From a virus: a stretch of 47,547 nucleotides of DNA. Shown one piece after another: positions 2,319-39,494 of this stretch. The translations under genes were made by a program, and so were the position numbers. The stretch lies in the IMG/VR virus record IMGVR_UViG_3300045988_038566. The stretch is one strand, 5' to 3'. Within the stretch, counting starts at the first letter, position 1. Each line of letters begins with the position of its first letter. The notes beneath the pieces are model-generated. The model saw only the letters and a list, made by a program, of their open reading frames with translations. It had not been told where the DNA came from and searched no databases.

Positions 2319-2335
2319 CAGGGAGGTGAAACAGA

Positions 2336-2854: not shown

Positions 2855-2870
2855 AAAAAGACAGCAGGAG

Positions 2871-2895
2871 CCAGCGGGAAGACCGCTGGTTTTTT
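2871..2895 (+). terminator. Rho-independent terminator after the sheath-tube pair
   Basis: Stem CCAGCGG (2871-2877) pairs with CCGCTGG (2883-2889), loop GAAGA, followed by TTTTTT (2890-2895). Confidence 0.7.
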
Positions 2896-2929
2896 CCTGC
2901 CCAAAATCAAAGATATGGAGGAATAAACA

Positions 2930-3352
2930 ATGTCAGATACAACAAATACAACTGAAAACATGGAGCAGGTAACAGAGCAGGAAAAGGAAATGCAGGAAGC
3001 ACAGGCAAGCGGCGTGGTCAATTTTGACGACAAGAAGAAAGACAAGGAAGAAGACGGCAGTTTGAATTATACACACACATTCAAAAAGCCCAGAGAGATT
3101 GAGGGAAAGAAGTATACAAAATTAACTTTCTATTTTGACAATTTAACTGGTGAAGATATTGAAGCAGTAGAACAGGAACTTGCAGACCAGAACAAATATG
3201 CACTTTCACCGGAAATCTCCTCTGCGTTCCAGTGTATTCTTGCGGCAAAAGCTGCGGGGGTTGCTTCTGATGAAATTAGACGTCTTCCGGTAGGTGATTA
3301 CATGAAGATTAAGAACAAAGCAAGGGATTTTTTAATTGCTGCGGGCTATTAA
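2930..3352 (+). CDS. Tail assembly chaperone, 0-frame product (P2 gpE / lambda gpG analogue)
   Basis: 140-aa acidic protein between the tube and tape-measure genes. It carries a slippery site near its 3' end. Confidence 0.75.
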   Translation: MSDTTNTTENMEQVTEQEKEMQEAQASGVVNFDDKKKDKEEDGSLNYTHTFKKPREIEGKKYTKLTFYFDNLTGEDIEAVEQELADQNKYALSPEISSAFQCILAAKAAGVASDEIRRLPVGDYMKIKNKARDFLIAAGY

Positions 3353-16522: not shown

Positions 16523-16952
16523 CCCAGCGGACGTCTGGGACATGGTGCAAAAAGCTATTGTATGGCTTGCGGGGATTGGGATTGTTATTGACTTAACGCC
16601 GGGAATTAAAATACAGCCCGTTCGCTGGTTGATTAAACAGCTGGGAAATCTTATGAACCACGACTTGAAAGAGCAGCTGAACCAGCTTGAAAAGGACTTT
16701 ATAGAACACAAGGTTGATAGCTGGCGCACGGAGATACTATCATTCCAGAGCAGTTGCATAAACCATGAACGCCATACAAAAGAAGAGTTTGACCATGTTA
16801 TTGATACATTGGCGAAGTATGACAAGTATATTAAGGACCACAAGTTGACAAACGGACAAGTTGACGTTGCGCATGAGTACATAGTGGATATTTACAAAGA
16901 ATGTATGCGCACAAACGACTTTGCTTTGACAAAGCCGGAAGAAGAACCATAG
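16500..16952 (+). CDS. Lysis-cassette membrane protein (N-terminal TM helix plus coiled coil), function unknown
   Basis: GTG 16500 lies 9 nt after AAGGAGG and overlaps the RT 3' end by 23 nt. Hydrophobic segment AIVWLAGIGIVIDL. Confidence 0.5.
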   Translation: MEAMQTLNPADVWDMVQKAIVWLAGIGIVIDLTPGIKIQPVRWLIKQLGNLMNHDLKEQLNQLEKDFIEHKVDSWRTEILSFQSSCINHERHTKEEFDHVIDTLAKYDKYIKDHKLTNGQVDVAHEYIVDIYKECMRTNDFALTKPEEEP

Positions 16953-16970
16953 GAGGTACAAAACAGCAAC

Positions 16971-17354
16971 ATGAAAAGTTTAATATTTTTTATCATTGGA
17001 TTTGCACTGGCATTAGCAGTGCTTTTTTTATGGAATTTACAGTATTTCAGACAGCGCAGGAAGAAGAGAAAAGAAGAGTTGCAGGAACACCCGGAGCGAA
17101 AGACCAGCGCAACAAAAATCATTATCTTTTCAATTCTGGCGACTTACTACATAGCATTTGCCGTTGGCGTGTGGGTAGTGGTCACAAAGGATTTTTACCA
17201 GTTATCAGTCTTGCTGACGTTCGTTGGCGGGGTAACTGCTGCCGCAGTAGCGTTCTACTGCTGGAAAGCAAAGGCAGAAAACCTGCTGAAAATCAAAGCT
17301 GCATACCCGGAGTTGTCCGGCACGCTGTCTGACTTTTCAAGCATGACGCAGTAG
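16971..17354 (+). CDS. Holin (multi-TM)
   Basis: 127 aa with three or four hydrophobic helices and charged linkers. It lies immediately upstream of the endolysin. Confidence 0.7.
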   Translation: MKSLIFFIIGFALALAVLFLWNLQYFRQRRKKRKEELQEHPERKTSATKIIIFSILATYYIAFAVGVWVVVTKDFYQLSVLLTFVGGVTAAAVAFYCWKAKAENLLKIKAAYPELSGTLSDFSSMTQ

Positions 17355-17373
17355 TGCAGGGGAGGTATAAGAC

Positions 17374-18792
17374 ATGGGACTAATAGGAGAAACAACACCA
17401 GAAAAGATTTGGAATTTTCTGAAATCAAAAGGGCTGTCCAGTTGTGGGGCAGCCGGATTGATGGGGAACCTATATGCAGAAAGCGGGCTGAACCCGCAGA
17501 ACTTGCAGAACAGCTATGAAAAGAAGATGGGACACACTGACGCAAGCTACACAGCAGCCGTGGACAACGGCAGTCATGGAAACTTTGCAAGGGACGGCGC
17601 AGGCTATGGACTGGCGCAGTGGACATACCACACCAGAAAAGCCGCTTTGCTGGAATATGCAAAAGCAGCCGGGAAGTCTATTGGCGACCTTGAAACACAG
17701 CTGGGGTTCCTTATGAAAGAATTGACAGAGGGCTACAAAGCCACACTGTCAGTATTAAAGAGCGCACAGACCGTCATTGCTGCTTCAAATGCAGTGCTGA
17801 CACAGTTTGAGCGCCCGGCAGACCAGAGCGACACGGTGAAGACAAAGCGTGCAGGATATGGGCAGAAATACTATGACCAGTACGCAGCCGGAGCCGTTAG
17901 CAATAAAAAGAATGGAGGTACAAGCAATATGAATGTATCAGAAGTAAGAAAGAAATTTGCAGCAAGGGCGGCAGCGTATGTGGGAGTGAAAGAGGGTACA
18001 GCAGCACACCACGCAATCATTGACGCCTACAACAACCACAAGCCGTTAGCGCAGGGGTACAAAGTGACATACCGTGACGCATGGTGTGCAACCTTTGGTT
18101 CAAAGATTGCTATTGAAGCGGGCTACACAGATATTATCCCTACGGAGTGCAGCTGTGACCGTCAGATTAAGTTGTGGCAGCAGATGGGGCGCTGGTGCGA
18201 GAATGACGCAAAGGTGCCGGAACCGGGCGACTATATCTATTATGACTGGGACGACAACGGCGCTGGTGACTGCACAGGCAGTTCAGACCATGTGGGCGTT
18301 GTAGAAAGCTGCAACGGTAACACTATCACAGTTGTTGAGGGAAACAAGTCCAATGCCGTTGGAAGAAGAACACTGGAAGTCAACGGGCGTTATATCAGAG
18401 GTTATGGCGTGCCGGACTTCTCAAAGAAAGCAACAAGCGAACCTGTAAAGCCTGCGGCACCTGCACAGCCTGCGCAGGGAACAGCCGGGGAACAGGTATA
18501 CACCGTGCAGAGAGGTGACACACTTTCTGGCATTGCTGCAAAGTATGGCACCACATACCAGAAGTTAGCAAGCTACAATGGAATTGCAAACCCTAACGTC
18601 ATTAGTGTTGGGCAGAAAATCAAAATTCCGGGAAGCGGCGTGCGTACATACACCGTGAAGAGCGGTGACAGCCTTTGGGCAATCGCAGCAAAGCAGCTGG
18701 GCGACGGTTCCAGATACAATGAAATTAAGACCATGAACGGTCTTACAAGCAACACCATTTACGCTGGGCAGACATTAAAGCTGCCTGCATAA
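17374..18792 (+). CDS. Modular endolysin: lysozyme-like N-domain + CHAP + 2 x LysM
   Basis: 472 aa. N-terminal [14 protein letters not shown]...YGLAQWT (phage tail lysozyme-like). CHAP-like DAWCATFGS...[10 protein letters not shown]...VVEGN. Two C-terminal LysM repeats ([17 protein letters not shown]..., [18 protein letters not shown]...). Confidence 0.85.
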
Positions 18793-18811
18793 TCAACAGG
18801 AGGAAAAAACA

Positions 18812-19399
18812 ATGGATAATGTAATTTATGCAGCCGTATATTTTGCCGTAACACTGGGGGCGTTCTTGATTGGAAAGTACGTTTGCCCAAACATTCCAAA
18901 GACTGTAACAGACAAGCTGGGCGAACTGTCAGAGTGGGCAGCAAAGTTTGTGGAATGGGCAAAAGAGTTCAAAAAGGATAAGACCGGGGAAGAGAAGATG
19001 GCAGCAGTTGTGGAGCAGTTGAAGAAGATTGCTGATGAAGCCGGGCTGAATGTCACAGAAGACCAGCTGAAAGCCATTGCGCAGGCGGCATACAATGCCA
19101 TGAAAGCCGGAGAGAAAGAAAGCAATACCGCAGAACCGCTGGAAGCACTCACAGCCACACCAGCTGCAACGGTAGTGATTAACACAACGGCACCAGTGAC
19201 AACAACAGAGAAAGTGGCTATTGCCACAGACAATGCGCCGGAGGGTGCCACGGAAACAAACGCAGACGGCACAGTGAACCTTTATGACGCAGCCGGGAAC
19301 ATTACCGGGAGCGTGACAAAGGAAGAAGCAGAGAAGATGGCAGCAGAAGTCACGAAGATTGTTGACGAAGAGGGAAACACGCTGGCAGACCTTAAATAA
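18812..19399 (+). CDS. LL-H-type holin-like membrane protein
   Basis: 195 aa with a single N-terminal TM (AAVYFAVTLGAFLIGKYV) followed by a helical, charged tail, a pattern recalled for the holin LL-H family. Confidence 0.5.
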   Translation: MDNVIYAAVYFAVTLGAFLIGKYVCPNIPKTVTDKLGELSEWAAKFVEWAKEFKKDKTGEEKMAAVVEQLKKIADEAGLNVTEDQLKAIAQAAYNAMKAGEKESNTAEPLEALTATPAATVVINTTAPVTTTEKVAIATDNAPEGATETNADGTVNLYDAAGNITGSVTKEEAEKMAAEVTKIVDEEGNTLADLK

Positions 19400-19438
19400 T
19401 GCCGCTGACGCTTTGCAGAATAAGCCAGAATGAGAAGA

Positions 19439-19485
19439 AAAGACCGTAAGTGGAGAAATACACCACTTGCGGTCTTTTTGTGTTT
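19439..19485. terminator. Strong, probably bidirectional rho-independent terminator between convergent operons
   Basis: 15-bp stem AAAGACCGTAAGTGG (19439-19453) pairs with CCACTTGCGGTCTTT (19463-19477) with one G-U pair. A T-run follows on the + strand and TTTCTTC on the - strand. Confidence 0.8.
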
Positions 19486-19502
19486 ATGGGGCAAATACGG
19501 CG

Positions 19503-19817
19503 TTATATTGTTTTATATGTGTACTCAATCCCACTTTCAGTTGCGGTGATTGTGTCCAGCTGGTCTTTGTAGCAGCCACGGGCAGCAGTCGCACGGGCTT
19601 TTCTGACGGCTTCACTTTGGCTTCTGGCGTTTATATGCAGCCAGTCAATGCGGACGCCATCATTGTTCACAATGGATATTGCAAAGGATTTGTGAGCAAT
19701 GCGCTTCACAGCACCTTTGCCGTTGCACTGGTAGCAATGCCCGGTCACACCGGATTTGTAAATGAATTTACCGGAGCCGCCGCACTTGCTGCAAGTAATT
19801 ATATCAGACATATTCAC
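19503..19817 (-). CDS. Hypothetical protein with DnaJ-type CxxCxGxG zinc-finger repeats
   Basis: 104 aa. Motifs CSKCGGSGKF and CYQCNGKG. Confidence 0.55.
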   Translation of the reverse strand: MNMSDIITCSKCGGSGKFIYKSGVTGHCYQCNGKGAVKRIAHKSFAISIVNNDGVRIDWLHINARSQSEAVRKARATAARGCYKDQLDTITATESGIEYTYKTI

Positions 19818-19822
19818 ACCCC

Positions 19823-20056
19823 CTACATTGTGCCGATAAAATCAGAACTGGTAAGCGCCCAGAACTGGGCTGCGTGTATAGTTGGAAACTTTGGTATTTC
19901 CCATGTGATATTGTCGTACACAATCTTGTATATGCCGCCTTTGTTTACCGTCAGATAGTATTTATCAGTATCACTTTTGCGGTCTGCTGGGTGCGTGTCC
20001 TGCACCATGAATGAAAGCCCGTTCTTTCTGAAACGTCTATTATAAGATTTTCCCAT
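19823..20056 (-). CDS. Hypothetical protein (77 aa)
   Basis: Middle gene of the leftward three-gene operon, 5-nt gap to the next gene. Confidence 0.5.
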   Translation of the reverse strand: MGKSYNRRFRKNGLSFMVQDTHPADRKSDTDKYYLTVNKGGIYKIVYDNITWEIPKFPTIHAAQFWALTSSDFIGTM

Positions 20057-20105
20057 ATATTATCACCATTCTTTCTGGGCGGCAGCAGCGCCGCCCGTGT
20101 AGTTA

Positions 20106-20402
20106 TTAGTCAAGGCAACATTCCATTGAAATTGGATATTGCGCTTTTAATTTTTCAAAAGCAGCCTTTGTGACCCGGTAGCTGCGCCAGTTTTCAATTT
20201 TCTTCTGGCAACCATCAATCCAGTGGGCTTCAATTTCTGTAATGCCCCTGCCTTTTAATTCAAGCGGGGTATCAACAAAATAATGTTTGCCATAATATGA
20301 AAGGCTGGCTTCCATTTTGACTTCTGGCTTGCGCTGTCCCATTTCTGGGGTGTAGCAGTGCAGCCCGTTTATTCTATCTTCCATGTAAATGATTTTTCCC
20401 AT
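20106..20402 (-). CDS. Hypothetical protein (98 aa)
   Basis: First gene of the leftward operon. GGAGG RBS (minus strand) and a promoter cassette lie upstream. Confidence 0.55.
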   Translation of the reverse strand: MGKIIYMEDRINGLHCYTPEMGQRKPEVKMEASLSYYGKHYFVDTPLELKGRGITEIEAHWIDGCQKKIENWRSYRVTKAAFEKLKAQYPISMECCLD

Positions 20403-20443
20403 ATCGTTTGACCTCCGTGTGTTTGATTTCTTTAACTGTCTTT

Positions 20444-20472
20444 ATTATATACTTACGGAAGTATAAAAACAA
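20444..20472 (-). promoter_or_regulatory. Leftward promoter cassette (TTGTTT-N17-TATAAT) with the operator in the spacer
   Basis: The minus strand reads TTGTTT TTATACTTCCGTAAGTA TATAAT AAAGACAGTTAAAG, the same cassette as at 21137, 22025 and 33805. Confidence 0.7.
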
Positions 20473-20530
20473 TCGGCAAAATACACAAATATACTTCCGT
20501 AAGATTGTATAAAATGTATACTTCCGTAAG
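20448..20530. promoter_or_regulatory. Operator cluster: three copies of the TATACTTCCGTAAG core (20448-20465 inverted, 20490-20503, 20517-20530)
   Basis: Direct reading. The cluster lies in the divergent region between the leftward operon and the RHH gene. A rightward extended -10 (TGATATACT, 20542-20550) follows. Confidence 0.7.
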
Positions 20531-20577
20531 AAAACAAAGTGTGATATACTGATTAAAAACCACAGGAGGTGCAGGAA

Positions 20578-20820
20578 ATGCCAGATACAACAGAAAAGAA
20601 GACCATACCGAGAGGACCAGCAGCCACGGCAGCAAAGAACAAATACCGTGACAATAACTATGACCGCATGGAACTTGCGGTGCCAAAGGGCATGAAAGCC
20701 CGCATAAAAGAGATTGCAAAAGAACAGGGCTATTCATCACAAAACAACTATGTTGTGGAAGCGGTAAAAGAGAAGTACCAGCGGGACACCGGGGAGGAAT
20801 TGACGTGGCAGAAAGAATGA
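20578..20820 (+). CDS. Ribbon-helix-helix (Arc/CopG-like) DNA-binding protein, candidate regulator of the repeated operators
   Basis: 80 aa from ATG 20578 (AGGAGGTG RBS). The pattern YDRMELAVPKGMKARIKEIAKEQGYSSQNNYVVEAVKEKY reads as strand-helix-helix. Confidence 0.55.
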   Translation: MPDTTEKKTIPRGPAATAAKNKYRDNNYDRMELAVPKGMKARIKEIAKEQGYSSQNNYVVEAVKEKYQRDTGEELTWQKE

Positions 20821-21128
20821 TTATAGAGCCAGTGAAGAGGATAGCAGAAAATTATCTGGAAACCAGAAACAAGGTGATTGAAAATTGCTGGTGCATGATA
20901 GTTGGGAACGACACGCCAAAGCAGGAAGACGGCTGGCTTGAAGTAATGAACGGCAGGCAAACAGAAAACGGGATTGCTAATATATACAACTTTATGTATA
21001 AAGGGAAAAGAGCGCTGACGCTGGAAGAAGTACAAGGGTGCGGGGCAAGCAGGTATTTTATCAGCAGCGGGGAATATACACTGGAAGACTACATGAGAGC
21101 GGTGCAAAATAATTCTGAAAAACTGTGA
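20805..21128 (+). CDS. Hypothetical protein (107 aa)
   Basis: GTG 20805 lies 7 nt after GGAGG (20793-20797) and overlaps the RHH gene's end. Confidence 0.5.
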   Translation: MAERMIIEPVKRIAENYLETRNKVIENCWCMIVGNDTPKQEDGWLEVMNGRQTENGIANIYNFMYKGKRALTLEEVQGCGASRYFISSGEYTLEDYMRAVQNNSEKL

Positions 21129-21136
21129 AAAAACTA

Positions 21137-21165
21137 TTGACTTTATACTTCCGTAAGTATATAAT
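21137..21165 (+). promoter_or_regulatory. Promoter cassette TTGACT-N17-TATAAT with the operator TATACTTCCGTAAGTATA (21144-21161)
   Basis: -35 at 21137-21142, 17-nt spacer, -10 at 21160-21165, followed by AAAGATAGTTAAAG. Confidence 0.75.
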
Positions 21166-21223
21166 AAAGATAGTTAAAGAAGCAACAATACTTTGACGAA
21201 TACGGCAAGGGAAAGGAGAAAAC

Positions 21224-21370
21224 ATGGCAGACAATATGACAGATAAACAGTTTGAAAAAATCTTGAAAATGGTTGAAATGATTTTGGACGGCTGCAAAGA
21301 CCTTGACGAAGCAAAAGCAAAGGTTAAGGAACTTACAGAAGACCAGAAAAAAGAAAAGTCGGCAGAATAG
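21224..21370 (+). CDS. Small hypothetical protein (48 aa, helical, Lys/Glu-rich)
   Basis: ATG 21224 follows AAGGAGA. It is below the ORF-track size cut-off. A hairpin GTCGGC/GCCGAC overlaps the stop. Confidence 0.45.
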   Translation: MADNMTDKQFEKILKMVEMILDGCKDLDEAKAKVKELTEDQKKEKSAE

Positions 21371-21489
21371 CCGACAGGGTACAAACAGAGGGGCGGCGGG
21401 CTTGCCACCAAAGCCCCAAACTGTTTATATAGATATAATATCAAGAAAACGTGGCAAGGTCAATACAATTCAATACGGAGGAAAACGGA

Positions 21490-22017
21490 ATGGAAACTGA
21501 AATGGAAAGCAGAATTGCAGACCCGTTCAGCTGGGACGGACACGAAGCAGAAACACTGCTTGTTTGCGAAAGTGGAAGCGGAAGAGCAAAAGAACTGGTG
21601 GCAGTTGTGACAGTAAAGACAGAGGGAAGACCAGAAGCATTTTACAGAGTGAGAGAAGCAGGAGAAAAAGACGTTGACTTTGAAAGCTGGCTTGAAGCGG
21701 TAGACTATTACAACTGCATTGGAGTAGAGAGCCACCCGGCAACACCGGACACCGGAATTGCAAAAACGGAGTTGCAGGACGAAGACTGGAAAACAGCAAT
21801 AGCACAGAAAAAGCCAACAATCCCGGCAGGCGCAGTGGTAAAGATAACTGGAACACTGCAAAATATGTATGGGGACTTTGTGAAAGTGGAGTACAACGGC
21901 GTAAAGTACACGGTTGAGCCACGCAAACTGGATATGCCAAAGACGCTGGAAGAACAGAAACAGGCAATCAGAAAAGCGACACTGGCAGCAGGCGCAAAGA
22001 TAATTGAAAATAATTAA
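21490..22017 (+). CDS. Hypothetical protein (175 aa)
   Basis: ATG 21490 lies 8 nt after GGAGG. The leader TTCAATACGGAGG is shared with the 22120 gene. Confidence 0.55.
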   Translation: METEMESRIADPFSWDGHEAETLLVCESGSGRAKELVAVVTVKTEGRPEAFYRVREAGEKDVDFESWLEAVDYYNCIGVESHPATPDTGIAKTELQDEDWKTAIAQKKPTIPAGAVVKITGTLQNMYGDFVKVEYNGVKYTVEPRKLDMPKTLEEQKQAIRKATLAAGAKIIENN

Positions 22018-22024
22018 AAACCTA

Positions 22025-22053
22025 TTGACAATATACTTACGGAAGTATATAAT
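22025..22053 (+). promoter_or_regulatory. Promoter cassette TTGACA-N17-TATAAT with an inverted operator (22032-22049)
   Basis: -35 at 22025-22030, -10 at 22048-22053, followed by AAGGACAGTTAAAG. Confidence 0.75.
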
Positions 22054-22119
22054 AAGGACAGTTAAAGCAATAGTGCTTAACACAAATAGTCAATATGGTT
22101 CAATACGGAGGGAATAGCA

Positions 22120-22377
22120 ATGTTAAATGAAATCACAAAGAAAGAATTTGAAGAGAGATACCCGGAGGTAAGCACATACGGTCTGGAAGCATACAGCCCA
22201 GTATATCTGGAAAACGGCGTGGTTCTGATTGATAAGGAATGGAACGGCGAAGTTTACACAGTCAAGGACGAAGAGGGAAAAGAAAGAACATACAGACCAG
22301 TGCAGGAGCCAGACGAAGTGGACGACGACGGCGAAGTTTTACAGTGGAAAACAACTGGCTACGAAGAAGAGTTTTAG
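22120..22377 (+). CDS. Small, highly acidic hypothetical protein (85 aa)
   Basis: Asp/Glu-rich sequence (…QEPDEVDDDGEVLQWKTTGYEEEF). It has its own promoter cassette and terminator. Confidence 0.55.
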   Translation: MLNEITKKEFEERYPEVSTYGLEAYSPVYLENGVVLIDKEWNGEVYTVKDEEGKERTYRPVQEPDEVDDDGEVLQWKTTGYEEEF

Positions 22378-22383
22378 AAAAGA

Positions 22384-22425
22384 AGAACCCCGGCAGGCAG
22401 CAGCCTTGCTGGGGTTCTTTATTTT
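22384..22425. terminator. Bidirectional rho-independent terminator (ends the 22120 gene and the convergent integrase gene)
   Basis: AGAACCCC...GGGGTTCT outer stem with additional inner pairs. TTTATTTT follows on the + strand and a T-rich tract follows on the - strand. Confidence 0.7.
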
Positions 22426-22477
22426 GTACTAACTTAACACAGCCCACGGGTAGTGTCACATTAGTACAACACTACCC
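22426..22477. other. Candidate attP region (interleaved inverted repeats at the integrase 3' end)
   Basis: GTACTAA (22426-22432) pairs with TTAGTAC (22461-22467). GGGTAGTGT (22448-22456) pairs with ACACTACCC (22469-22477). The call rests on position only. Confidence 0.25.
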
Positions 22478-23869
22478 AAAAACAACACCCGTGATATTCT
22501 GGTCATTATCAATTCTAATTTCTTTAATGGCAGAACGCCAAAGCGTGCGTTTTTCTTCACGGGTCAAATTCTCATAAATTGTTTTGAAATCATTATCAAG
22601 GAGCCTGCGGACGGCTGCAAAGTCTGGCGGCGGTTCAATGCTGGGTTCCGGTATCTGTTTAAGTGCAGCAGTATATATTTGATAGTCCCTTTTGTAGTCC
22701 TCAATGTCTATTAAGTCATTCACATATAATTCTTTTAACTTGGTCAGCTTCCGTTTCAGTGCTGCTTTATCAGTGCGGGCAACGGACGCTTTCTTTTTGG
22801 CTGCGGCAACTTCCCATTCCAGCTGGCAGCGTTCCAGTTCCTCTGCCAGATGTTCAAACAGCCACTTTTCCACGACGTCTTCACGGGCTGAATGATTATG
22901 AGAGCAGCGCCCACGCTGGAAATGCTGGTTGCAGCGGTAATAATAATAATCACTTGACTTGTACCCGACCAGTTTATGCCCACATTCAGCGCAAGTCAGA
23001 ATGGAAGTGAAAATATATACCTTGCCAGACGGAACAGAACGTGCGTTGCGTTCCAGAAGCGCTTGCACACGGTCAAACTGCTGCTTGCTGATGATTGCCG
23101 GGCAGAAATGGTCATTGAACCTGCCGCCCCGGTCATACACCCCAGTATACAGCTTTTCTTTCAGCATACGCCGGAAAGTGGCGTCACACCAGTTCACGCC
23201 GTAGGTTTCCCGGATATAGCGGACAGTAGCACGCTGGGAAATCGAAGTTTCAAAGTAGTTGAAAGCGTCTTGCACAATGGCTGCGTCTTCTGGCACAACT
23301 TCCAGCCGCTTTTCCTCATTAACACGGAAGCCAAAGGGAGCAGAGCCGGAAACAACGGTGCCGTGGGCAATCTTACTGTCAAATACAACGTCTATTCGTT
23401 CCCCGTCAATGTCCGCTTCATTCTGGGCAATGGACAGCTTCACGTTAATATACAGACGCCCGTTTGCGGTTGTGGTGTCATATTCTTCATCAGTGGTTTT
23501 CCAGTCGCAGTTGTGCGCTTCCAGAACTTCCATGATTTTATAATAATCTGCCACGGAACGAAACCAGCGGTCAAGGCGGCAGAAAAGCAGAATATTCACT
23601 TCATCACGCTTCACACTGTCCATCATGCGTTGAAAGTCGGTTCTTTTATGAATGTTCTTTCTGGCGGTCTTGGCAGCGTCAATGTAAATTCCAACAATGA
23701 CCCAGCCACGTTCCCTTGCGTATGCTTCCAGTCGTTCTTGCTGGGCTTCCAGTGACAGACCTTTTATTTTCTGTTCTTCCCCGGAAACCCTTATATATAA
23801 AGCAACCCGGACAAGTTCCGGGCTTAAATCAATCTTTTTCACTATTGTATCACCTGCATTTCCTTTCAT
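22472..23869 (-). CDS. Large serine recombinase (phage integrase)
   Basis: 465 aa from ATG 23869 (ORF open to 23962). Resolvase-type N-domain (VALYIRVSGEEQ...), recombinase domain, zinc ribbon (CAECGHKL...YYYRCN) and a C-terminal coiled coil. Confidence 0.88.
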   Translation of the reverse strand: MKGNAGDTIVKKIDLSPELVRVALYIRVSGEEQKIKGLSLEAQQERLEAYARERGWVIVGIYIDAAKTARKNIHKRTDFQRMMDSVKRDEVNILLFCRLDRWFRSVADYYKIMEVLEAHNCDWKTTDEEYDTTTANGRLYINVKLSIAQNEADIDGERIDVVFDSKIAHGTVVSGSAPFGFRVNEEKRLEVVPEDAAIVQDAFNYFETSISQRATVRYIRETYGVNWCDATFRRMLKEKLYTGVYDRGGRFNDHFCPAIISKQQFDRVQALLERNARSVPSGKVYIFTSILTCAECGHKLVGYKSSDYYYYRCNQHFQRGRCSHNHSAREDVVEKWLFEHLAEELERCQLEWEVAAAKKKASVARTDKAALKRKLTKLKELYVNDLIDIEDYKRDYQIYTAALKQIPEPSIEPPPDFAAVRRLLDNDFKTIYENLTREEKRTLWRSAIKEIRIDNDQNITGVVFG

Positions 23870-23982
23870 TTCCCGCCTGCTGGTGATATAATCAAAATTG
23901 CAGACGGTATTGTTGTATCTGGTATGACATATCTTTGCACGCCCCGGAAGTGTTCCCAGCACGACCGGGGCATTTTGTTTTA

Positions 23983-25058: not shown

Positions 25059-25523
25059 TCACCCGGCGTCTGTCCCGGAAACACTGCCAGTGTCAACGGG
25101 CGGGCACTGGGCTTCTAAATCTTCTGGATTGTCTGGAACTAACAATGCAGGGTCCGCAGTAACAGCAGCAACAAGCCTGCGTTTGAAAAATTCCACGGCA
25201 GTTCTTCTAATTTCTGGGTCAAGTTCAAAGTACGTCTTTATGATTTCCAATTCAAGACCCGTGGCACCTTTAGACTTCACGAAGTCGTCAAGGCTGAATG
25301 TGTCCGGCTGTATATACATTTCACCAGAACCAGTGCGCAACCATTCTTCATTCACATTATAAAGAAGACAGATTGCCTTGATTGTCTGGTCAGTGACGGT
25401 TGAGCCGTCCCGTTCCATGTAGCTGACGCCAGTTTGCTTCATTCCCAGACTTACTGCAAATTCAGTCTGGCTGATGTGCAAAACATCTTTTCTAAAATGC
25501 TTCACACGTTCATTGATAGTCAT
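25059..25523 (-). CDS. XRE/cI-type HTH repressor
   Basis: 154 aa. HTH motif ISQTEFAVSLGMKQTGVSYMERDGSTVTDQTIKAICLLYNVNEEWL. It is divergent from the early rightward operon across an operator-containing region. Confidence 0.8.
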   Translation of the reverse strand: MTINERVKHFRKDVLHISQTEFAVSLGMKQTGVSYMERDGSTVTDQTIKAICLLYNVNEEWLRTGSGEMYIQPDTFSLDDFVKSKGATGLELEIIKTYFELDPEIRRTAVEFFKRRLVAAVTADPALLVPDNPEDLEAQCPPVDTGSVSGTDAG

Positions 25524-25556: not shown

Positions 25557-25655
25557 ATAGCAGTAACCGCTAAAAAAGTCAATATTAAAAACGGAAAAAG
25601 GGTTGACAAATAGCAGTAACCGCTATAATATATAGTTAAACAAGCAGTAACCGCT
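25557..25655. promoter_or_regulatory. Three operators AGCAGTAACCGCT (pseudo-palindrome AGCnGTnACnGCT) at 25559-25571, 25612-25624 and 25643-25655
   Basis: Direct reading. (A)ATAGCAGTAACCGCT occurs twice and CAAGCAGTAACCGCT once. The middle site overlaps the rightward promoter. Confidence 0.7.
25603..25631 (+). promoter_or_regulatory. Rightward early promoter (TTGACA ... TATAAT/TAATAT) overlapped by an operator
   Basis: TTGACA at 25603-25608. TATAAT at 25624-25629 gives a 15-nt spacer. TAATAT at 25626-25631 gives a 17-nt spacer. Confidence 0.6.
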
Positions 25656-25711
25656 ACAACAGAAGCGTTTACCGCTTGCGAAACCACACAGCATGAAAGG
25701 AGGAACAGACA

Positions 25712-30131: not shown

Positions 30132-30950
30132 ATGGCAAGAACAAAAATACTGGTGCCGCAAGAAAAGCAGTGCGGGTATACTTCCGTTATTGTTTCATAC
30201 AGCACGGGGATTGACAGCACGGGCGCTATTTACTGGGCAACACAGAACTTTGCGCCGGAAAAAATATTCCTGCTGTACTGCGACACTGGCGCAGAATACA
30301 GCGTGAATGAAGCGTTGTTTTTCAAGACTGCAAAGGTTCTGGGATTGAAACCAATATTGCTGAAAGCACCGAAAGACTTTTTATATCTGCTTTTGAATGA
30401 GCGGTTGAAGTTCCCGGACAGCAAGAACCGCTGGTGTACGGCGTATCTGAAAACGGCGGTGACAGACCACTGGATAAGAACGCACCGGGACATACTGGGT
30501 GAAAAGTGTTTGTTCATATCTGGGGAACGCCGGGACGAAAGCAGAGGGCGTGCAAAGCTGCCAGAATGTGAGTATCACAGCACGACATTGAAAACAGAGC
30601 GCAAGGGCAAGTTTGAATGTCACTGGCTGCGCCCAGTGCTGGACTACGAAAAAGGCAAGATGTTTGAATTTGGAAAGCGTCTGGGACTGGACCCGCACCC
30701 GTGCTATGAATACATTGACCGTTGCAGCTGCATGATGTGCATATTTGCGAAAAATGAACAGGTCATGGAGAACATGAAGCGACACCCGGAAGCAATGCGG
30801 AAATGGGTAGACGCAGAAGCAAAGCTGGGGTTCACATGGAAGCAGAAAACAAGCCTGCAAGAATTGTGGGACCAGTGCTTTGATATTGACGACGTGACCG
30901 AAACGGACACACCAGAACAGGCAGGAGGTGACGCCTGGTGCCAGCAGTAA
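30132..30950 (+). CDS. PAPS-reductase-family (PP-loop ATPase, DndC/IbrA-like) protein
   Basis: 272 aa. PP-loop-like VSYSTGIDSTG, plus ...FISGERRDES... and a C-terminal Cys cluster (CYEYIDRCSCMMC). Confidence 0.7.
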   Translation: MARTKILVPQEKQCGYTSVIVSYSTGIDSTGAIYWATQNFAPEKIFLLYCDTGAEYSVNEALFFKTAKVLGLKPILLKAPKDFLYLLLNERLKFPDSKNRWCTAYLKTAVTDHWIRTHRDILGEKCLFISGERRDESRGRAKLPECEYHSTTLKTERKGKFECHWLRPVLDYEKGKMFEFGKRLGLDPHPCYEYIDRCSCMMCIFAKNEQVMENMKRHPEAMRKWVDAEAKLGFTWKQKTSLQELWDQCFDIDDVTETDTPEQAGGDAWCQQ

Positions 30951-33742: not shown

Positions 33743-33833
33743 AATACTTACGGAAGTATACAAAATGCACAAATATACTTCCGTAAGATTGTGTAAAATG
33801 TCGATTGCTTTTATACTTCCGTAAGTATATAAT
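33743..33833. promoter_or_regulatory. Second operator cluster plus promoter cassette (operators 33743-33760 inverted, 33774-33787, 33812-33829; TTGCTT-N17-TATAAT 33805-33833)
   Basis: Same architecture as 20448-20530. About 35 nt (CACAAATATACTTCCGTAAGATTGTNTAAAATGT) are near-identical to 20485-20518. Confidence 0.7.
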
Positions 33834-33884
33834 AAAGACAGTCAAAGGAACAACAACACAACATAGAAAACGGAGGTATAAGCA

Positions 33885-34163
33885 ATGACAAAGAAGCAGT
33901 TAAAAGAAGCATACACAAACTGGAATAGAGAAATCACAAAGCTGGGAGAAAGAAAAAGAGAAATTTTCAAAGAGTTGCAGGAAATGTGCGCAGAGAAAGG
34001 CGACGGGAACCGCTGGTGTTGCATTGAAAAGTTGGTAGAGGAACTGACAAAGAAAGGCTATGTATACACCGCTATGAACTTGATAAGCGAGTATTACAAT
34101 ATATGCGGACAGGAAGAAGCGTTGCTGAACCTTGCATTAGCAACAAATAATTTTGAGATTTAA
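33885..34163 (+). CDS. Hypothetical protein (92 aa)
   Basis: ATG follows ACGGAGGTATAAGCA. First gene downstream of the 33805 promoter cassette. Confidence 0.5.
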   Translation: MTKKQLKEAYTNWNREITKLGERKREIFKELQEMCAEKGDGNRWCCIEKLVEELTKKGYVYTAMNLISEYYNICGQEEALLNLALATNNFEI

Positions 34164-34166
34164 AAA

Positions 34167-34239
34167 GCACGGGTGGCGCAATGGATAGCACAGCAGCCCC
34201 CGAAGCTGCCGGGTGCGGGTTCAAGTCCCGTCCCGTGCA
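34167..34239 (+). tRNA. tRNA, anticodon CCG (Arg) by manual folding; non-canonical C at position 33
   Basis: 73 nt. Acceptor GCACGGG/CCCGTGC plus discriminator A. D-arm GCGC-AATGGATA-GCAC (one C-A mismatch). Anticodon stem GCAGC/GCTGC with loop CCCCGAA (anticodon at 34200-34202). T-arm GCGGG-TTCAAGT-CCCGT. No encoded CCA. Confidence 0.75.
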
Positions 34240-34289
34240 TTACTGGGAAAAGAAACTATAAACATACCAGATACAAGGAGGAATACCCC

Positions 34290-35051
34290 ATGAAAACATT
34301 ATCAATCATTAACTTAAAAGGTGGAGTGGCAAAGACCATTTCCAGCGTTAATATGGCACACATTCTGGCAGCAGTACACGGCTGCAAAGTCCTGTTAATC
34401 GACAACGACAAGCAGGGGAACGCCAGCAAGATTTTGAACCGCCACAGTTACGACCATAAGGGAACCGCAGAGGTTATGACCCAGCGTGGCATTGACCCGG
34501 CAGCAGTTATCCAGCACACCGATTATGACGGCTTGGACATTATCACAGCAAACATGAACCTGCTGACAGCCAATTTGGAAGTCATGCTGGACCAGTCCAG
34601 ACCGCAACAGACACGCTTCAAAAAGTTTCTGGACGGATTGCAGCAGGAATATGACTACTGCATTATTGACAACGCCCCAGACATTAACATTTCGACCATA
34701 AATGCGCTGGTAGCTTCGCAAGACGTCATGGTGCCTATAACCATTGATGATTTTGCAATAGACGGTCTGGCAGAACTGAAAGAACAGATTGACAACACCC
34801 GTGAGGACCTAAACCCGCAGTTACGTTTCTGTGGCTGCTTTGTCACACAGTACGACAGAACAAACGAAGCAGACACGCAGGGAGAAGAGTTCTTGAAGAC
34901 GCTTGAATATCCGGTGTTTGATACGCATATCAGAAAGACACCGAAAATGAAACCCAGCACATTTGAAAGATTGCCAATCATTTTATATTCCCCACACTGC
35001 GGCGCAAGTGCCGACTATAAAGCGTTAGTGGAAGAATGGTTGAGAATGTGA
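34290..35051 (+). CDS. parA: ParA/Soj-type Walker ATPase
   Basis: 253 aa from ATG 34290. Deviant Walker A motif NLKGGVAKTISS, and IDNDKQGN and IIDNAPD motifs. The longer track ORF start at 34173 would run through the tRNA. Confidence 0.85.
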   Translation: MKTLSIINLKGGVAKTISSVNMAHILAAVHGCKVLLIDNDKQGNASKILNRHSYDHKGTAEVMTQRGIDPAAVIQHTDYDGLDIITANMNLLTANLEVMLDQSRPQQTRFKKFLDGLQQEYDYCIIDNAPDINISTINALVASQDVMVPITIDDFAIDGLAELKEQIDNTREDLNPQLRFCGCFVTQYDRTNEADTQGEEFLKTLEYPVFDTHIRKTPKMKPSTFERLPIILYSPHCGASADYKALVEEWLRM

Positions 35052-35064
35052 CCAATTCGGACAC
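35045..35064. repeat. 20-nt exact repeat AATGTGACCAATTCGGACAC, copy 1 (parS-like imperfect palindrome)
   Basis: Identical to 39626-39645. It lies between parA (overlapping its stop) and the ParB-like gene. The core is GTGnCCnAnTnGGnCAC. Confidence 0.85.
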
Positions 35065-35081
35065 GTTAGGAGGGAAAGACA

Positions 35082-36428
35082 ATGGCAGGAGCAGCAAAGA
35101 AATTCAACTTGACAGAGTTATTAAACCAGCGGTCAAAGGAAGCTGGGGAGCAGCAGAAAACAGAACAGCAGCAGGCGGCAGCAGGCACAGAGGTTGTCAC
35201 GTCCGAAGAGGGCGTGAGCAGCACTGCCGATATTTACGACCTTATACCGTCAAAGGGCAATTTTTACAGCGTGGAAGACGTGCAAGACTTAAAACAGTCT
35301 ATTGAACTTCTGGGAGTGTTACAACCACTTCTGGTGACTGATGAAGAGGAAGACGGCAAGCGCCGTATCATTGCAGGGCACAGAAGACGGCTGGCGGTCA
35401 TGCAGCTGGTGGACGAGGGAAAAGAGCGTTTCAGACGGGTTCCAATCTTAATCAAGCCGAAGAAAAACGCAATTCTGGACAGACTGGCACTGATTATGGC
35501 AAACCGTTTCCGTGAGAAGACAGACTGGGAACGCATGACAGAAGCGCTGGAAACAGAAAAGCTGGTACTGGAATTAAAAGAAAGCATGAACATTCCGGGC
35601 AGAACCCGTGATTTACTGGCAGAGATTATAGAAACGTCCCCGGCGCAGGTAGGAAGATACAAGGCAATCTATAACAATATCATTCCAGAACTGATGGCAG
35701 AATTTAAGGCAAACAGAATTGTTGTATCTGTCATTTATGAAGCGTCCGGGCTGCCGGAAGATTACCAGAAGCAGGCGGCAGAGGTATTCCGGGAAAATGA
35801 AGTGCTGACATTATCAGACATTAAGCAGATAAAGAAGAACTGGGAAGCGTCGCAGCAGATACCGGGACAGATGGACGAAGCCACAGAGGGAGCAGGAGAA
35901 GCCACAGAGGGCACAGAGGACGCAACCGGGCAGCAGTCAGAATACGTTGACCCACAGCCGGAGCAGATAACGTCACTTTGTTACAGCTGCACACACTATG
36001 AGGACTGCCACGACAAGACAGCAACCGTGACCAGCTGCAATGCTTATGAGAACCGCAGAGAAGCCCAGAAGACGGACGAAGAGAGATACAACGAAGAGCA
36101 GGCAGCTATTGACCGGGAAACACAAAAGAAACTGCGTGAAATGCAGCAGGAAGAGAAAATGCAGCACTTGCCGTCTGATGATAGAAAAGAAAAGACAATC
36201 AGAGTATCACCGGAGAAAATGAAAGCCGTTGCGGTTGACCGCACAAGACCATACATGATTTTGAAAAATGATGATTACAGAGAGGGCGACACAGTAAAGC
36301 TGATTGAGTTTGCAGATGGCAGAGCAACCGGAAACACGGCAGACATGAAAATTATCTGCATGGACGACGACACGACCAGCAGCGCACTTGAAGAGGGCTA
36401 TTGTGTAATAGCGTTGCAGGAGGTGTAG
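35082..36428 (+). CDS. ParB/Srx N-domain protein fused to a C-terminal DUF3850/ASCH-like PUA domain
   Basis: 448 aa. ParB box LGVLQPLLVT...RIIAGHRRRLA. The C-terminus ...YMILKNDDYREGDTVKLIEFADGRATGNTADMKIICMDD...GYCVIAL resembles DUF3850. Confidence 0.7.
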   Translation: MAGAAKKFNLTELLNQRSKEAGEQQKTEQQQAAAGTEVVTSEEGVSSTADIYDLIPSKGNFYSVEDVQDLKQSIELLGVLQPLLVTDEEEDGKRRIIAGHRRRLAVMQLVDEGKERFRRVPILIKPKKNAILDRLALIMANRFREKTDWERMTEALETEKLVLELKESMNIPGRTRDLLAEIIETSPAQVGRYKAIYNNIIPELMAEFKANRIVVSVIYEASGLPEDYQKQAAEVFRENEVLTLSDIKQIKKNWEASQQIPGQMDEATEGAGEATEGTEDATGQQSEYVDPQPEQITSLCYSCTHYEDCHDKTATVTSCNAYENRREAQKTDEERYNEEQAAIDRETQKKLREMQQEEKMQHLPSDDRKEKTIRVSPEKMKAVAVDRTRPYMILKNDDYREGDTVKLIEFADGRATGNTADMKIICMDDDTTSSALEEGYCVIALQEV

Positions 36429-36430
36429 AC

Positions 36431-37405
36431 GTGGTACAGATTTTAGAACTATTTGGGGGAATTGGTTCCCCCAGATGTGCTTTGCGAAATTTGAACATTC
36501 CAACAAAAGCCATTGACTATGTGGAAATAGACGAAAACGCCGTAAGGTCATACAATGCAATGTTTGCGGAAGAATTAGAGTATAAAACACAATCAGTGGT
36601 GGGCTGGAACCTCAAACCAGATATTCTGATACATGGCAGCCCGTGTCAAGATATGAGTATTGCGGGACATCAAGGAAAAGCAACTGCGGAAGCAGGGAGG
36701 ATAAACAGAGGAAAAGGAGCAGACAAAGGAAGCGGCACCCGGTCAAGTCTGATGTGGGAAACAATACACATTATTCAAAATATGGGCGAATGGAAGCCGA
36801 AATATGTTATCTGGGAAAACGTGAAAAATGTATTAAATGGCTACAACAAGAAGAATTTTGAACAATACATAGCAGAAATGGAAAAGCTGGGATATACAAG
36901 CAATTATCAAATATTAGACGCAAGGGACTTTGGATTGCCACAGGCACGGGAAAGGGTTTTCACGGTATCGGTGCTGAATGGTGAGAAGTTCGACTTTTCG
37001 GACTTAATCAGAACACCAATGAAAGATATATCAGAATTTCTTCTGGACAACGACGAAGTGCCGCCAGTGTACGACGTGACACAACCGAGTGTGTACAGTG
37101 TGATTGGGGAAAAAGGCATAAGAAGAGCAACAGTAATAAAAGATTTTGCATACACAATCACGACCAGACAGGACAGAACACCAGCGCAGGTGATTGACTG
37201 CGGAAACGGGCGTTATAGATATTTAACAGAACGTGAGTGCTGGCGTCTGCAAGGATATACAGACGAAGACTACGAAAGGGCAAAAGCAGTCCAGAAGCGT
37301 TCTGGAAGATACAGAATGGCGTTATACAAGCAGGCTGGGAACAGTATTGCGGTTCCCATATTTGAAAGTATGTTCAGAAAGATAATTTTGCATGAAACAG
37401 CATAG
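36431..37405 (+). CDS. DNA (cytosine-5)-methyltransferase
   Basis: 324 aa from GTG 36431 (AGGAGGTG RBS). Motif I ELFGGIGS, motif IV GSPCQDMS, motif VI WENVKN, motif X QAGNSIAV. Confidence 0.88.
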   Translation: MVQILELFGGIGSPRCALRNLNIPTKAIDYVEIDENAVRSYNAMFAEELEYKTQSVVGWNLKPDILIHGSPCQDMSIAGHQGKATAEAGRINRGKGADKGSGTRSSLMWETIHIIQNMGEWKPKYVIWENVKNVLNGYNKKNFEQYIAEMEKLGYTSNYQILDARDFGLPQARERVFTVSVLNGEKFDFSDLIRTPMKDISEFLLDNDEVPPVYDVTQPSVYSVIGEKGIRRATVIKDFAYTITTRQDRTPAQVIDCGNGRYRYLTERECWRLQGYTDEDYERAKAVQKRSGRYRMALYKQAGNSIAVPIFESMFRKIILHETA

Positions 37406-37988: not shown

Positions 37989-38486
37989 ATGGAGGAAAAG
38001 CAAATGGCGCAGGCAATGGAAAAAGGCAGGGTTATTGAATTGCTGGAATATTACAAAGACATAGACGGGGAGGTGAGTATATACAGAAAGATAATAAGTG
38101 ACTTAACGGACCAATACTACAATCCCATTGGCGCTATACAATGCGACGGTCTACCAAAAGGAAAAAATAATATATCACGACAAACAGAAAATATGGCGCT
38201 TAATATTCCAGATTATGTCAGCGGCGAAATCAGAGAGTATGAAGCAAAGGTGCAGCAGTTGCAAGCCTTAAAGGCACAGATTTTGCAGGAAGTTTCAAGG
38301 CTGAAACTGAAAGAAAAGCGCATTATTTTTGATTTTTACATGCACAACCTCAAATGGGAACAAGTAGCGGTACGCAATTCATACAGTGAAAGACAGTGTA
38401 AGAATATCAGAGATACAGCACTTGAAACACTTTCACAGAGGTTTGAAAAGAACCAGATTATTTCACAATTTCAGAGGATTGCATAA
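37989..38486 (+). CDS. Sigma-70 region-4-like late transcription regulator (RinA/ArpU-class)
   Basis: 165 aa (the alternative start ATG 38004 has the better RBS). The C-terminal KRIIFDFYMHNLKWEQVAVRNSYSERQCKNIRDTALETL is a region-4-type HTH. It lies immediately upstream of the packaging genes. Confidence 0.6.
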   Translation: MEEKQMAQAMEKGRVIELLEYYKDIDGEVSIYRKIISDLTDQYYNPIGAIQCDGLPKGKNNISRQTENMALNIPDYVSGEIREYEAKVQQLQALKAQILQEVSRLKLKEKRIIFDFYMHNLKWEQVAVRNSYSERQCKNIRDTALETLSQRFEKNQIISQFQRIA

Positions 38487-38578: not shown

Positions 38579-38623
38579 TGGGCTTTGGTGATTTTTTGAA
38601 TTTACAAAGCCCATAATTTTTTA
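38579..38623 (+). terminator. Leader terminator-like hairpin between late promoter 1 and the first packaging gene
   Basis: TGGGCTTTG (38579-38587) pairs with CAAAGCCCA (38605-38613), 17-nt loop, then TAATTTTTTA. Confidence 0.45.
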
Positions 38624-38681
38624 TACTTCCGTAAACTGGAAGAGTTGGAAAGAATGAAAACGAACGAAAAGAGGTGAGAAG

Positions 38682-39494
38682 ATGGGAAGACCACGGAACC
38701 CGGAACGGGACAAGTCAATGCAACGCTATCTGGACGCAGACGGCAAGATTGAAACAGCGGAACTGGCGAAGCTGGCAGGGGTGCCAGAAGTGCGGATAAG
38801 AAAATGGAAGTCAGAAGACAGCTGGGACGAAGCGCTGAAAAACAAGCCGAAAAAAAGAGGGGGTCAAAAAGGCAACAAAAATGCTGCCGGGAAAACCCCA
38901 GCAAAAAAGGGCAATAAAAATGCCGTAACACATGGGGCATTTGCGCAGGCGGGATATGAAGACATAGACCCGGAGCAGGCGGCAGCCATACAGAACATGG
39001 GCACACCGTCCGCAATGTCACAAATGATGGAGGAATTGCAGGCACTATATCTGCGCAAAGCCTATCTGGAAAGCCTATTGAAAGAGTATGAAAGCCCAGA
39101 AGCAGGCGGCTTTTACACAGATAAAATAGTACACATGATTGTACCAAAGAGCATGGAGGAAAGACAGCAGGAAGAGGACTGCGGCATGGAACACCAGCAG
39201 TGCGCAGACCCAGAGGGAAGCAAGACAGAAACATATAAAACAGCCATGAAGTCTGTCATTAAGTCCAGCCCATTTGAACGGGCAATGAAAGTGGAAGCCG
39301 AACTAAACAAGCTGCATGGGCGTATCATCAAGCAGCTGGATAGTATCAAGGCGTATGAGTTGGAGGACAGACGCTTGACGCTTGCTGAAAAGCAACTTGA
39401 ATTGAACAAACAGAAGCTAACGGGAGAATTTGAGATTGACCCGGACGGAAGCACAGAAAACGACGAAATCACAGACGTTGTGGACGACGTTTGA
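38682..39494 (+). CDS. YjcR-like HTH protein (terminase small-subunit-like)
   Basis: 270 aa. N-terminal HTH-like segment (ETAELAKLAGVPEVRIRKWKSED) and repeated GNKNA motifs (GGQKGNKNAAG, KKGNKNAVTHG). Confidence 0.5.
   Translation: MGRPRNPERDKSMQRYLDADGKIETAELAKLAGVPEVRIRKWKSEDSWDEALKNKPKKRGGQKGNKNAAGKTPAKKGNKNAVTHGAFAQAGYEDIDPEQAAAIQNMGTPSAMSQMMEELQALYLRKAYLESLLKEYESPEAGGFYTDKIVHMIVPKSMEERQQEEDCGMEHQQCADPEGSKTETYKTAMKSVIKSSPFERAMKVEAELNKLHGRIIKQLDSIKAYELEDRRLTLAEKQLELNKQKLTGEFEIDPDGSTENDEITDVVDDV

Follow-up and report, generated by a model that had tools for sequence, protein, structure and literature searches.

A ribbon-helix-helix protein as the probable repressor of an operator repeated in promoter spacers of a temperate Lachnospiraceae phage

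In the immI region of phage P22, the ribbon-helix-helix (RHH) repressors Arc and Mnt act at the divergent promoters Pant and Pmnt. RHH proteins also include omega of plasmid pSM19035 and ParG, which are both global regulators and centromere binders, and T4-type phages carry promoter-stem-loop (PeSL) cassettes. Among the anti-CRISPR-associated (Aca) proteins, Aca14 (WP_005725436 / HDR1349883) is an RHH repressor of its own and a neighbouring operon, and a helical extension besides its beta-ribbon is predicted to contact DNA (Nucleic Acids Res 2026, PMC13551039). In archaeal rudiviruses, a strong-promoter regulatory motif precedes early genes and the repressor Aca8 carries the same motif (Nat Commun 2024, PMC11065993). 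Here, a possible regulator-operator pair was examined in the 47,547 bp viral record IMGVR_UViG_3300045988_038566 (the window, meaning the whole stretch of DNA analysed), which represents a temperate siphovirus-like phage of Lachnospiraceae. An 18 bp near-palindrome, TATACTTCCGTAAGTATA, is found in ten copies, one of them with a mismatch, and four of the copies lie within promoters. Judged from the sequence and its relatives, the near-palindrome is very likely to be the operator of the phage's own 80 amino acid (aa) RHH protein (20578-20820), and the evidence supports an autoregulated repressor with a multi-promoter regulon that is separate from the operators of the cI-like repressor.

The nine copies reported in an earlier sequence-only reading of the window are all present and far above chance, with the 12-mer core ATACTTCCGTAA occurring exactly at 20453 (-), 20491 (+), 20518 (+), 21145 (+), 22037 (-), 33748 (-), 33775 (+), 33813 (+) and 38623 (+). 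The tenth copy of the core, with one mismatch, is at 30178. Shuffling gave a chance expectation of 0.11 for the 12-mer with up to one mismatch and of 0.00 for the 18-mer with up to three mismatches, and the latter never appeared in shuffled sequence. The copy at 30178 may be due to chance, and is left undecided because it is intragenic, has no right arm and has to be set against the expectation of 0.11. The label of half site had been given to one of the shorter copies; however, such sites keep 14 of the 18 bp and are three-quarter sites.

Homologues of the RHH protein were collected by protein similarity alone, and the motif was found directly upstream of the gene in 16 of 17 cases, the flank of the 17th being N-masked. 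All 17 homologues are in Lachnospiraceae/Oscillospiraceae-type genomes. No further copy of the motif was present elsewhere in these 10-20 kb genome loci, and none was present in 8.4 kb of host flank beside a prophage, which is a small sample. The candidacy of the RHH protein as the binder, put forward from the position of its gene, is thereby backed comparatively.

In proteins with a T[RK]AKNKY arm (~85 distinct loci), the outer arms of the operator, ATACTT/AAGTAT, are constant and the central four bases vary with the beta-strand. The centre is ACGG in 56 of the 58 distinct loci where residues 30 and 32 are R and E, and ATAT in 15/15 loci where they are Q and L. Other pairings are RLY or RLF with (A/G)CG(C/T), RI[SPH] with GCAC, RFS with GCAT, and QVK, SLR or NLR with GTAC. 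Positions 30, 32 and 34 of the beta-strand align with the residues through which Arc and AmrZ contact bases in the structures of their operator complexes. When pairings were permuted among 26 distinct beta-strands, 0 of 10,000 permutations reached the observed purity, though this test takes no account of relatedness.

A second subfamily (loci L299-L366) has the N-terminal arm KAQQKAV[HN]KY.K.NYD and 16 bp operators with outer arms (A/C)TAT…ATA(T/G), and keeps the layout, with three sites, a TATAAT promoter that points leftward and a promoter of the extended -10 type. The pairings recur, with RMELTVP found beside TT-ACGG-GA, RLELSVP beside ACGG and RFLVTMK beside CC-ATAT-GG, and there are at least seven centres, for example GCGC, GCTAGC, GAATTC and CATATG. 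One relative (L175; IMGVR_UViG_3300045988_033235, coordinates 1210-3240) encodes two RHH paralogues, which share 96% and 42% identity with the window protein; the sites ahead of each are of a different type, CCGT-centred and GCGC/GCGT-centred. Within one phage every site has one centre, even where sites are hundreds of bp apart, and the RHH gene is the only gene that always adjoins the cluster of sites. Distant classes were reached with alignment queries; single-protein queries (P0144 and P0147) gave 1 and 0 loci. Single 14-mer matches in viral contigs (65 of 120 loci) were treated as mostly due to chance, given the size of the collection.

These observations bear on two other explanations. 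Another regulator of the phage could bind the motif, the RHH protein being a mere neighbour; candidates are the cI-like helix-turn-helix (HTH) protein, the Cro-side product and the late-activator-like protein. The window does encode further DNA-binding proteins, and palindromes are typical of HTH dimers. However, the cI-like repressor has its own operators, which differ from the RHH-side motif, as had been claimed, and have the sequence AGCAGTAACCGCT at 25558, 25611 and 25642 with a degenerate fourth copy at 25663 (span 25558-25676), one of them occupying the spacer of the TTGACA-17-TAATAT promoter P_R (25603-25631). As the RHH gene alone is always next to the cluster, and the site centre tracks the RHH beta-strand in the second subfamily and in the phage with two paralogues as well, binding by another regulator is very improbable.

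The chances are similarly slight that the motif is a host-factor site, or a spacer kept by descent in cassettes copied by recombination, with no dedicated phage binder. Near-identical cassettes of ~45 nt do precede ~30 unrelated cargo families, as copy-and-paste predicts, but phased three-quarter sites stand outside promoters, all sites of a phage change centre together with the RHH beta-strand, and the small sample of host flank and 20 kb loci described above holds no copy away from the RHH gene.

The operator of the RHH protein fills the 17 nt spacer of four sigma-70-type promoters (Table 1), all of which were found as the sequence-only reading had given them. Two of these, P21137 (11/12) and P22025 (12/12), are the top two promoter-like matches in a 20 kb scan. 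Alignment of the four cassettes agrees with the proposed reuse of ~45 nt, which are near-invariant (ATTG...TATAATAAAGACAGTTAAAG), and the 14 nt past each -10 are AAAGACAGTTAAAG (21166-21179, 22054-22067, 33834-33847 and, on the minus strand, 20430-20443). In the relatives, 100 operator-promoter cassettes were found (138 sequences), with TTGCTT (32) as the commonest -35 hexamer, followed by TTGACT (18), TAGACT (15) and TTGACA (9), and 97 of the 100 face an open reading frame (ORF) with a ribosome-binding site. Conserved -35 and -10 hexamers with a 17 nt spacer, oriented towards genes, are thus present, as in a sigma-70/sigma-A promoter. The AAAGACAGTTAAAG start region is kept in most of the 100 cassettes, with a second variant (…ATCAAAGGAA); a role as start site or as RNA 5' end and simple descent are all candidates, and a search of Rfam matched no RNA element there and found only a tRNA. 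Activation of the MerR type was also considered and rejected. MerR-type activators work in over-long spacers of 19 nt, and the consensus hexamers here stand at the optimal distance of 17 nt.

The two clusters, A (20444-20550) and B (33743-33833), are versions of one three-site unit. The sequence sharing that had been claimed for them extends to an alignment over the full length, interrupted only by two 11 bp indels (20466-20476 and 33800-33810), each of which holds a -35 hexamer. As read from the alignment, these indels would decide whether the left or the right outer site becomes a promoter-embedded operator. In 81 distinct clusters from relatives, nearly all centre-to-centre spacings are 27/38 or 31/42 bp, so that two phases occur, each with a ±11 bp alternative. 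Helical phase is therefore preserved, which suggests that bound proteins may contact one another. The extended -10 pattern TGnTAnnnT of the RHH promoter is found in 56 of 70 distinct regions upstream of homologues against 8.2 expected, and in many relatives the TATACT of this promoter belongs to a fourth operator. Cluster A, with its divergent promoters and RHH operator, lies 5 kb from the cI region, where the operator is a different one.

Cluster B and P33805 lie within the rightward replication/accessory region, where cluster B is upstream of a ParA-like gene (34291-35051). The RHH protein could thus be a centromere binder of a type Ib-like partition system together with this ATPase, the clusters serving as centromeres and operators as with ParG and omega, and RHH centromere binders that repress several promoters do exist, omega of pSM19035 being an example. 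Against this, 13 kb separate the RHH gene from parA, and the genes next after the ParA-like one encode a ParB_N/DUF3850 protein and a methylase and not an RHH protein. Most sites stand singly in the promoters of small, unrelated genes, and the phage, which encodes a serine integrase, was found integrated (the copy ending at window position 22451); no plasmid homologues of the RHH protein were found in the plasmid collection. A partition role is, therefore, hardly to be expected.

The genes downstream of the cassettes are mostly small. The cassette-driven ORFs of the relatives fall into 30 families, mostly of 40-130 aa, and a ParE/RelE-like toxin was the only cargo family recognised with Pfam and PHROGs among the window ORFs and ten cargo families of the relatives. 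No antirepressor family and no known anti-defence gene was recognised in the same searches, and it is possible that a small novel antirepressor is among these ORFs, perhaps one directed at the cI-like protein. The ORFs of the leftward operon gave no informative family matches in Pfam or PHROGs; the 104 aa ORF (19503-19817) carries a CxxCxGxG zinc-ribbon-like motif. The operons had been described as short, but that of P33805 is multi-gene and not short. Its tRNA-Arg overlaps the GTG at which the ParA-like ORF was mechanically taken to begin. The true start of this ORF is probably the ATG at 34291, which is preceded by AAGGAGG. In another relative (L205, 1940-2570), an ATAT-centred cassette is followed by a 40 aa Lys-rich ORF, a 56 aa membrane ORF and, last, the RHH gene, a layout like that of an acr-aca operon.

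The least probable explanation, that the RHH protein is the antitoxin of a type II toxin-antitoxin pair and the sites its autoregulatory operator, draws on the ATGA overlap of the downstream ORF with the RHH stop, on the conserved C-terminal tail DTGEEL.W and on a ParE/RelE-like toxin gene directly after the RHH gene in two relatives (L124 from 781, L125 from 852), but this toxin gene has its own operator-promoter cassette, no cognate toxin is constant, with at least 29 families following the RHH gene in 57 loci, and most operators belong to promoters of further operons, at distances of up to 18 kb.

A further three-quarter site is located upstream of the small terminase gene, terS, and is kept in relatives with diverged flanks (L056 and L052). 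It is directly preceded by a terminator-like hairpin (38580-38612; GGGCTTTG…CAAAGCCC and a T run), which comes after the late-activator-like gene. The TATACT within this site is a possible -10 of a late promoter, to judge from its sequence.

An integrated copy of the phage in Hominiventricola filiformis CLA-AA-H276 is 98.5% identical across window positions 16878-22451, and the homology breaks off at 22451 (L121 position 5647), between the terminator and the stop of the integrase gene at 22472. Position ~22451 is likely to be the attachment-site core. As the homology ends beside the 3' end of the integrase gene, the cassettes in 19503-22420 form the right end of the prophage, and this region sits between the lysis genes and attR. 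A hairpin like a bidirectional terminator (19446-19487; AAAGACCGTAAGTGG…CCACTTGCGGTCTTT, flanked on either side by T runs) separates the end of the lysis module from the end of the leftward operon of small ORFs. After the integrase gene come, in order, a DUF4236 gene and the gene for the cI-like HTH_3 repressor (25059-25523), a 154 aa protein with an HTH_3 domain only, in which no self-cleavage or peptidase domain was recognisable.

Table 1. Coordinates of the operator copies, promoters and associated genes in the window
Feature	Coordinates	Strand	Description
Leftward operon	19503-20402	-	ORFs 20106-20402 (98 aa), 19823-20056 (77 aa), 19503-19817 (104 aa)
Leftward promoter	20444-20472	-	TTGTTT-17-TATAAT; drives 20402 to 19503; arrangement kept in relatives
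Operator O1, cluster A	20448-20465		full 18 bp palindrome, TATACTTACGGAAGTATA on + strand; in spacer of leftward promoter
Operator O2, cluster A	20490-20507	+	three-quarter site, TATACTTCCGTAAG + ATTG
Operator O3, cluster A	20517-20534	+	three-quarter site; overlaps -35 position of RHH promoter
Extended -10 of RHH promoter	20542-20550	+	TG-A-TATACT
RHH gene	20578-20820	+	80 aa Arc/AmrZ-like ribbon-helix-helix protein, proposed repressor
103 aa ORF	20817-21128	+	overlaps RHH stop (ATGA); gene at this position varies among relatives
Promoter cassette P21137	21137-21165	+	TTGACT-17-TATAAT; operator 21144-21161; drives 21224-21370 (48 aa) and 21490-22017 (175 aa)
Promoter cassette P22025	22025-22053	+	TTGACA-17-TATAAT; operator 22032-22049, inverted; drives 22120-22377 (85 aa)
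Terminator	22382-22420		after 22120-22377
Serine integrase gene	22472-23962		3' end adjoins end of homology at 22451
One-mismatch copy	30177-30190	+	TATACTTCCGTTAT; inside PAPS-reductase-like gene 30132-30950, 46 nt in
Operator 1, cluster B	33743-33760		full site, inverted, first base A
Operator 2, cluster B	33774-33791	+	three-quarter site
Promoter cassette P33805	33805-33833	+	TTGCTT-17-TATAAT; operator 33812-33829
P33805 operon	33885-37405	+	five features listed below
92 aa ORF	33885-34163	+	P33805 operon
tRNA-Arg(CCG)	34167-34239	+	P33805 operon
ParA-like AAA_31 ATPase gene	34291-35051	+	P33805 operon; ATG start
ParB_N + DUF3850 protein gene	35082-36428	+	P33805 operon
C5 cytosine methylase gene	36401-37405	+	P33805 operon, last gene
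Late-activator-like gene	37989-38486		phrog_36/248
terS-side site	38622-38634	+	three-quarter site TATACTTCCGTAA, 48 nt 5' of terS
Small terminase gene (terS)	38682-39494		

The assignment of the 20578-20820 product as an RHH protein, made from its translation, agrees with its matches to Arc-like PHROG families (phrog_13890 at 2.8e-18 and phrog_582, 'Arc-like repressor', at 5.7e-6, with phrog_3178/228 weaker), and the RHH signature is therefore detectable by family profiles. A profile of 41 homologues matched the solved structures of AmrZ (3qoq, E=0.007) and Arc (1b28, E=0.011), and some homologues carry PF03869 or PF10723. In an alignment of the homologues, the N-terminal arm and beta-strand are the most conserved part (PRG.AAT.AKNKY...NYDR.EL..PKG), and the C-terminal tail DTGEEL.W is also conserved. 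The family comprises 2358 clusters at 50% identity (E<=1e-3), nearly all members being unnamed. In the phage GenBank collection, the RHH protein matched only phage Saumur of Enterocloster clostridioformis YL32, where the homologue is annotated 'Arc-like repressor' and the operators and layout are the same, and one weak hit; a search of the plasmid collection returned no homologue. The motif string was in no paper found in a literature search, and no description of this RHH family was found there.

The reading of an operator in the promoter spacer as a site of repression, and of a circuit separate from that of cI, is backed by the comparative evidence. One RHH dimer would occupy each site, centred on the palindrome, with the two-stranded beta-ribbon contacting the central CCGT and the conserved N-terminal arm (…ATAAKNKYRDNNYD…) contacting the outer TATACTT arms. 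From the geometry, an RHH dimer bound in the 17 nt spacer of a strong promoter of the host sigma-A type would exclude RNA polymerase. Two of the promoters have two phased extra sites upstream, which would suggest cooperative binding, and as the extra sites in cluster A cover the -35 region of the RHH promoter, the repressor would limit its own synthesis. A further site overlaps a possible -10 ahead of the terminase/late operon.

A temporal logic can be added to this, with a little under an even chance of being correct. When the phage enters a naive cell, its consensus promoters would fire at once, in a burst yielding small accessory proteins together with the tRNA-Arg and the ParA-like, ParB_N and methylase products. 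The RHH protein would then build up and switch the promoters off, as Arc or Aca proteins do. In the lysogen, the self-limited RHH protein would hold the promoters silent, as Mnt does, and would likewise repress any incoming phage whose operators belong to its class. Such cross-repression would explain the existence of several operator classes.

Several points weigh against this account. Binding of the RHH protein and transcription starts at the cassettes are inferred from sequence, and the timing and the expression in the lysogen are pure inference. A persistently active RHH protein would block the site at the late operon, and the model therefore needs a mechanism of relief. The pairing of beta-strand and centre is imperfect, in that the facing residues of RINLTVP and RINVTFP are identical but the centres differ. 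As the RHH gene and the operator are adjacent, they are co-inherited, and relatedness is the factor that the permutation test leaves aside. For the protein itself, Pfam gave no match to the window RHH at E<=0.01. The AlphaFold monomer is of moderate quality (predicted local distance difference test 72), with helices at 39-50 and 55-71 and a helix at residues 14-24, but the strand region is not modelled as a strand. A Foldseek search of this monomer against the Protein Data Bank returned nothing at E<1, a result that is uninformative for an obligate dimer.

It is proposed only tentatively, as somewhat more likely to be wrong than right, that the phage represents a very large undescribed RHH family with two-part DNA reading, at least eight orthogonal classes, a second layer of heteroimmunity and an immediate-early regulon. 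If this is true, the N-terminal arm would read the outer arms and the beta-ribbon the central 4-6 bp, separably, and at least eight repressor/operator classes, natural and orthogonal to one another, would share one consensus cassette. These classes would form a second heteroimmunity layer between competing phages of gut Clostridia, and the cassette would mark an immediate-early regulon of dozens of small proteins that are candidate anti-defence or host-takeover genes. The pair offers a testable regulator and operator for prophages widespread in human and mouse gut Lachnospiraceae, and the related phage Saumur of E. clostridioformis YL32 is cultured and inducible. The cassette flags ~30 small-gene families as co-regulated, a route that has led to anti-defence genes elsewhere. 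The covariation series informs site choice by RHH proteins and could provide orthogonal repressor/promoter pairs for Clostridia.

Compared with T4-type PeSL cassettes, which hold early promoters, the cassettes described here are likewise repeated, adjoin small ORFs of diverse kinds where the genome is plastic, and probably favour modular shuffling of genes. However, they hold the operator of a repressor and no stem-loop, and the phage is temperate. As with omega, the RHH sites occur in both orientations across several promoters, of which one precedes a predicted ParA-type ATPase gene, but omega binds arrays of 7 bp heptads on plasmids, whereas the sites here are 18 bp palindromes in an integrating phage. 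The rudivirus system shares the reuse of one regulatory sequence with a strong promoter before small unannotated genes near the genome end, and a co-encoded repressor with the motif upstream; it differs in that Aca8 is a winged HTH protein, the promoters are archaeal and the early timing was established by transcriptomics (PMC11065993).

Aca repressors in general have an inverted-repeat operator within a strong promoter of their own and neighbouring operons, and this arrangement was found here. The likeness to Aca14 is one of description, in that the RHH protein is proposed to repress the operon to which it belongs together with nearby operons that carry small accessory genes, and has an extra predicted helix (residues 14-24). 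The relative with the RHH gene last in an operon headed by an operator-promoter also follows the Aca layout. However, the repeat of Aca14 overlaps the -10, whereas the operator here fills the spacer, and Pfam and PHROGs recognised no anti-defence gene in the regulon here.

P22 immI differs from the present system in having two RHH repressors and an antirepressor, whereas here there is one RHH protein and no antirepressor was recognised among the regulated ORFs. The regulon here extends to at least four promoters and a site before the late operon, across 18 kb, the host is a Firmicute, and the similarity to Arc is marginal (profile E=0.011). In both, however, a small RHH repressor (a proposed one here) is encoded far from cI/Cro and near the late, tail-lysis end of the genome, at a divergent promoter pair with an operator between the -35 and -10 of a strong promoter, and forms an autoregulated second circuit beside cI. 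The kind of regulator is thus known from Arc and Mnt of P22, Aca14 and omega, and the regulatory principle is itself textbook, but this widespread family is undescribed, and what it adds is a family-wide covariation series, a wide distribution among gut phages and a regulon of uncharacterised genes.

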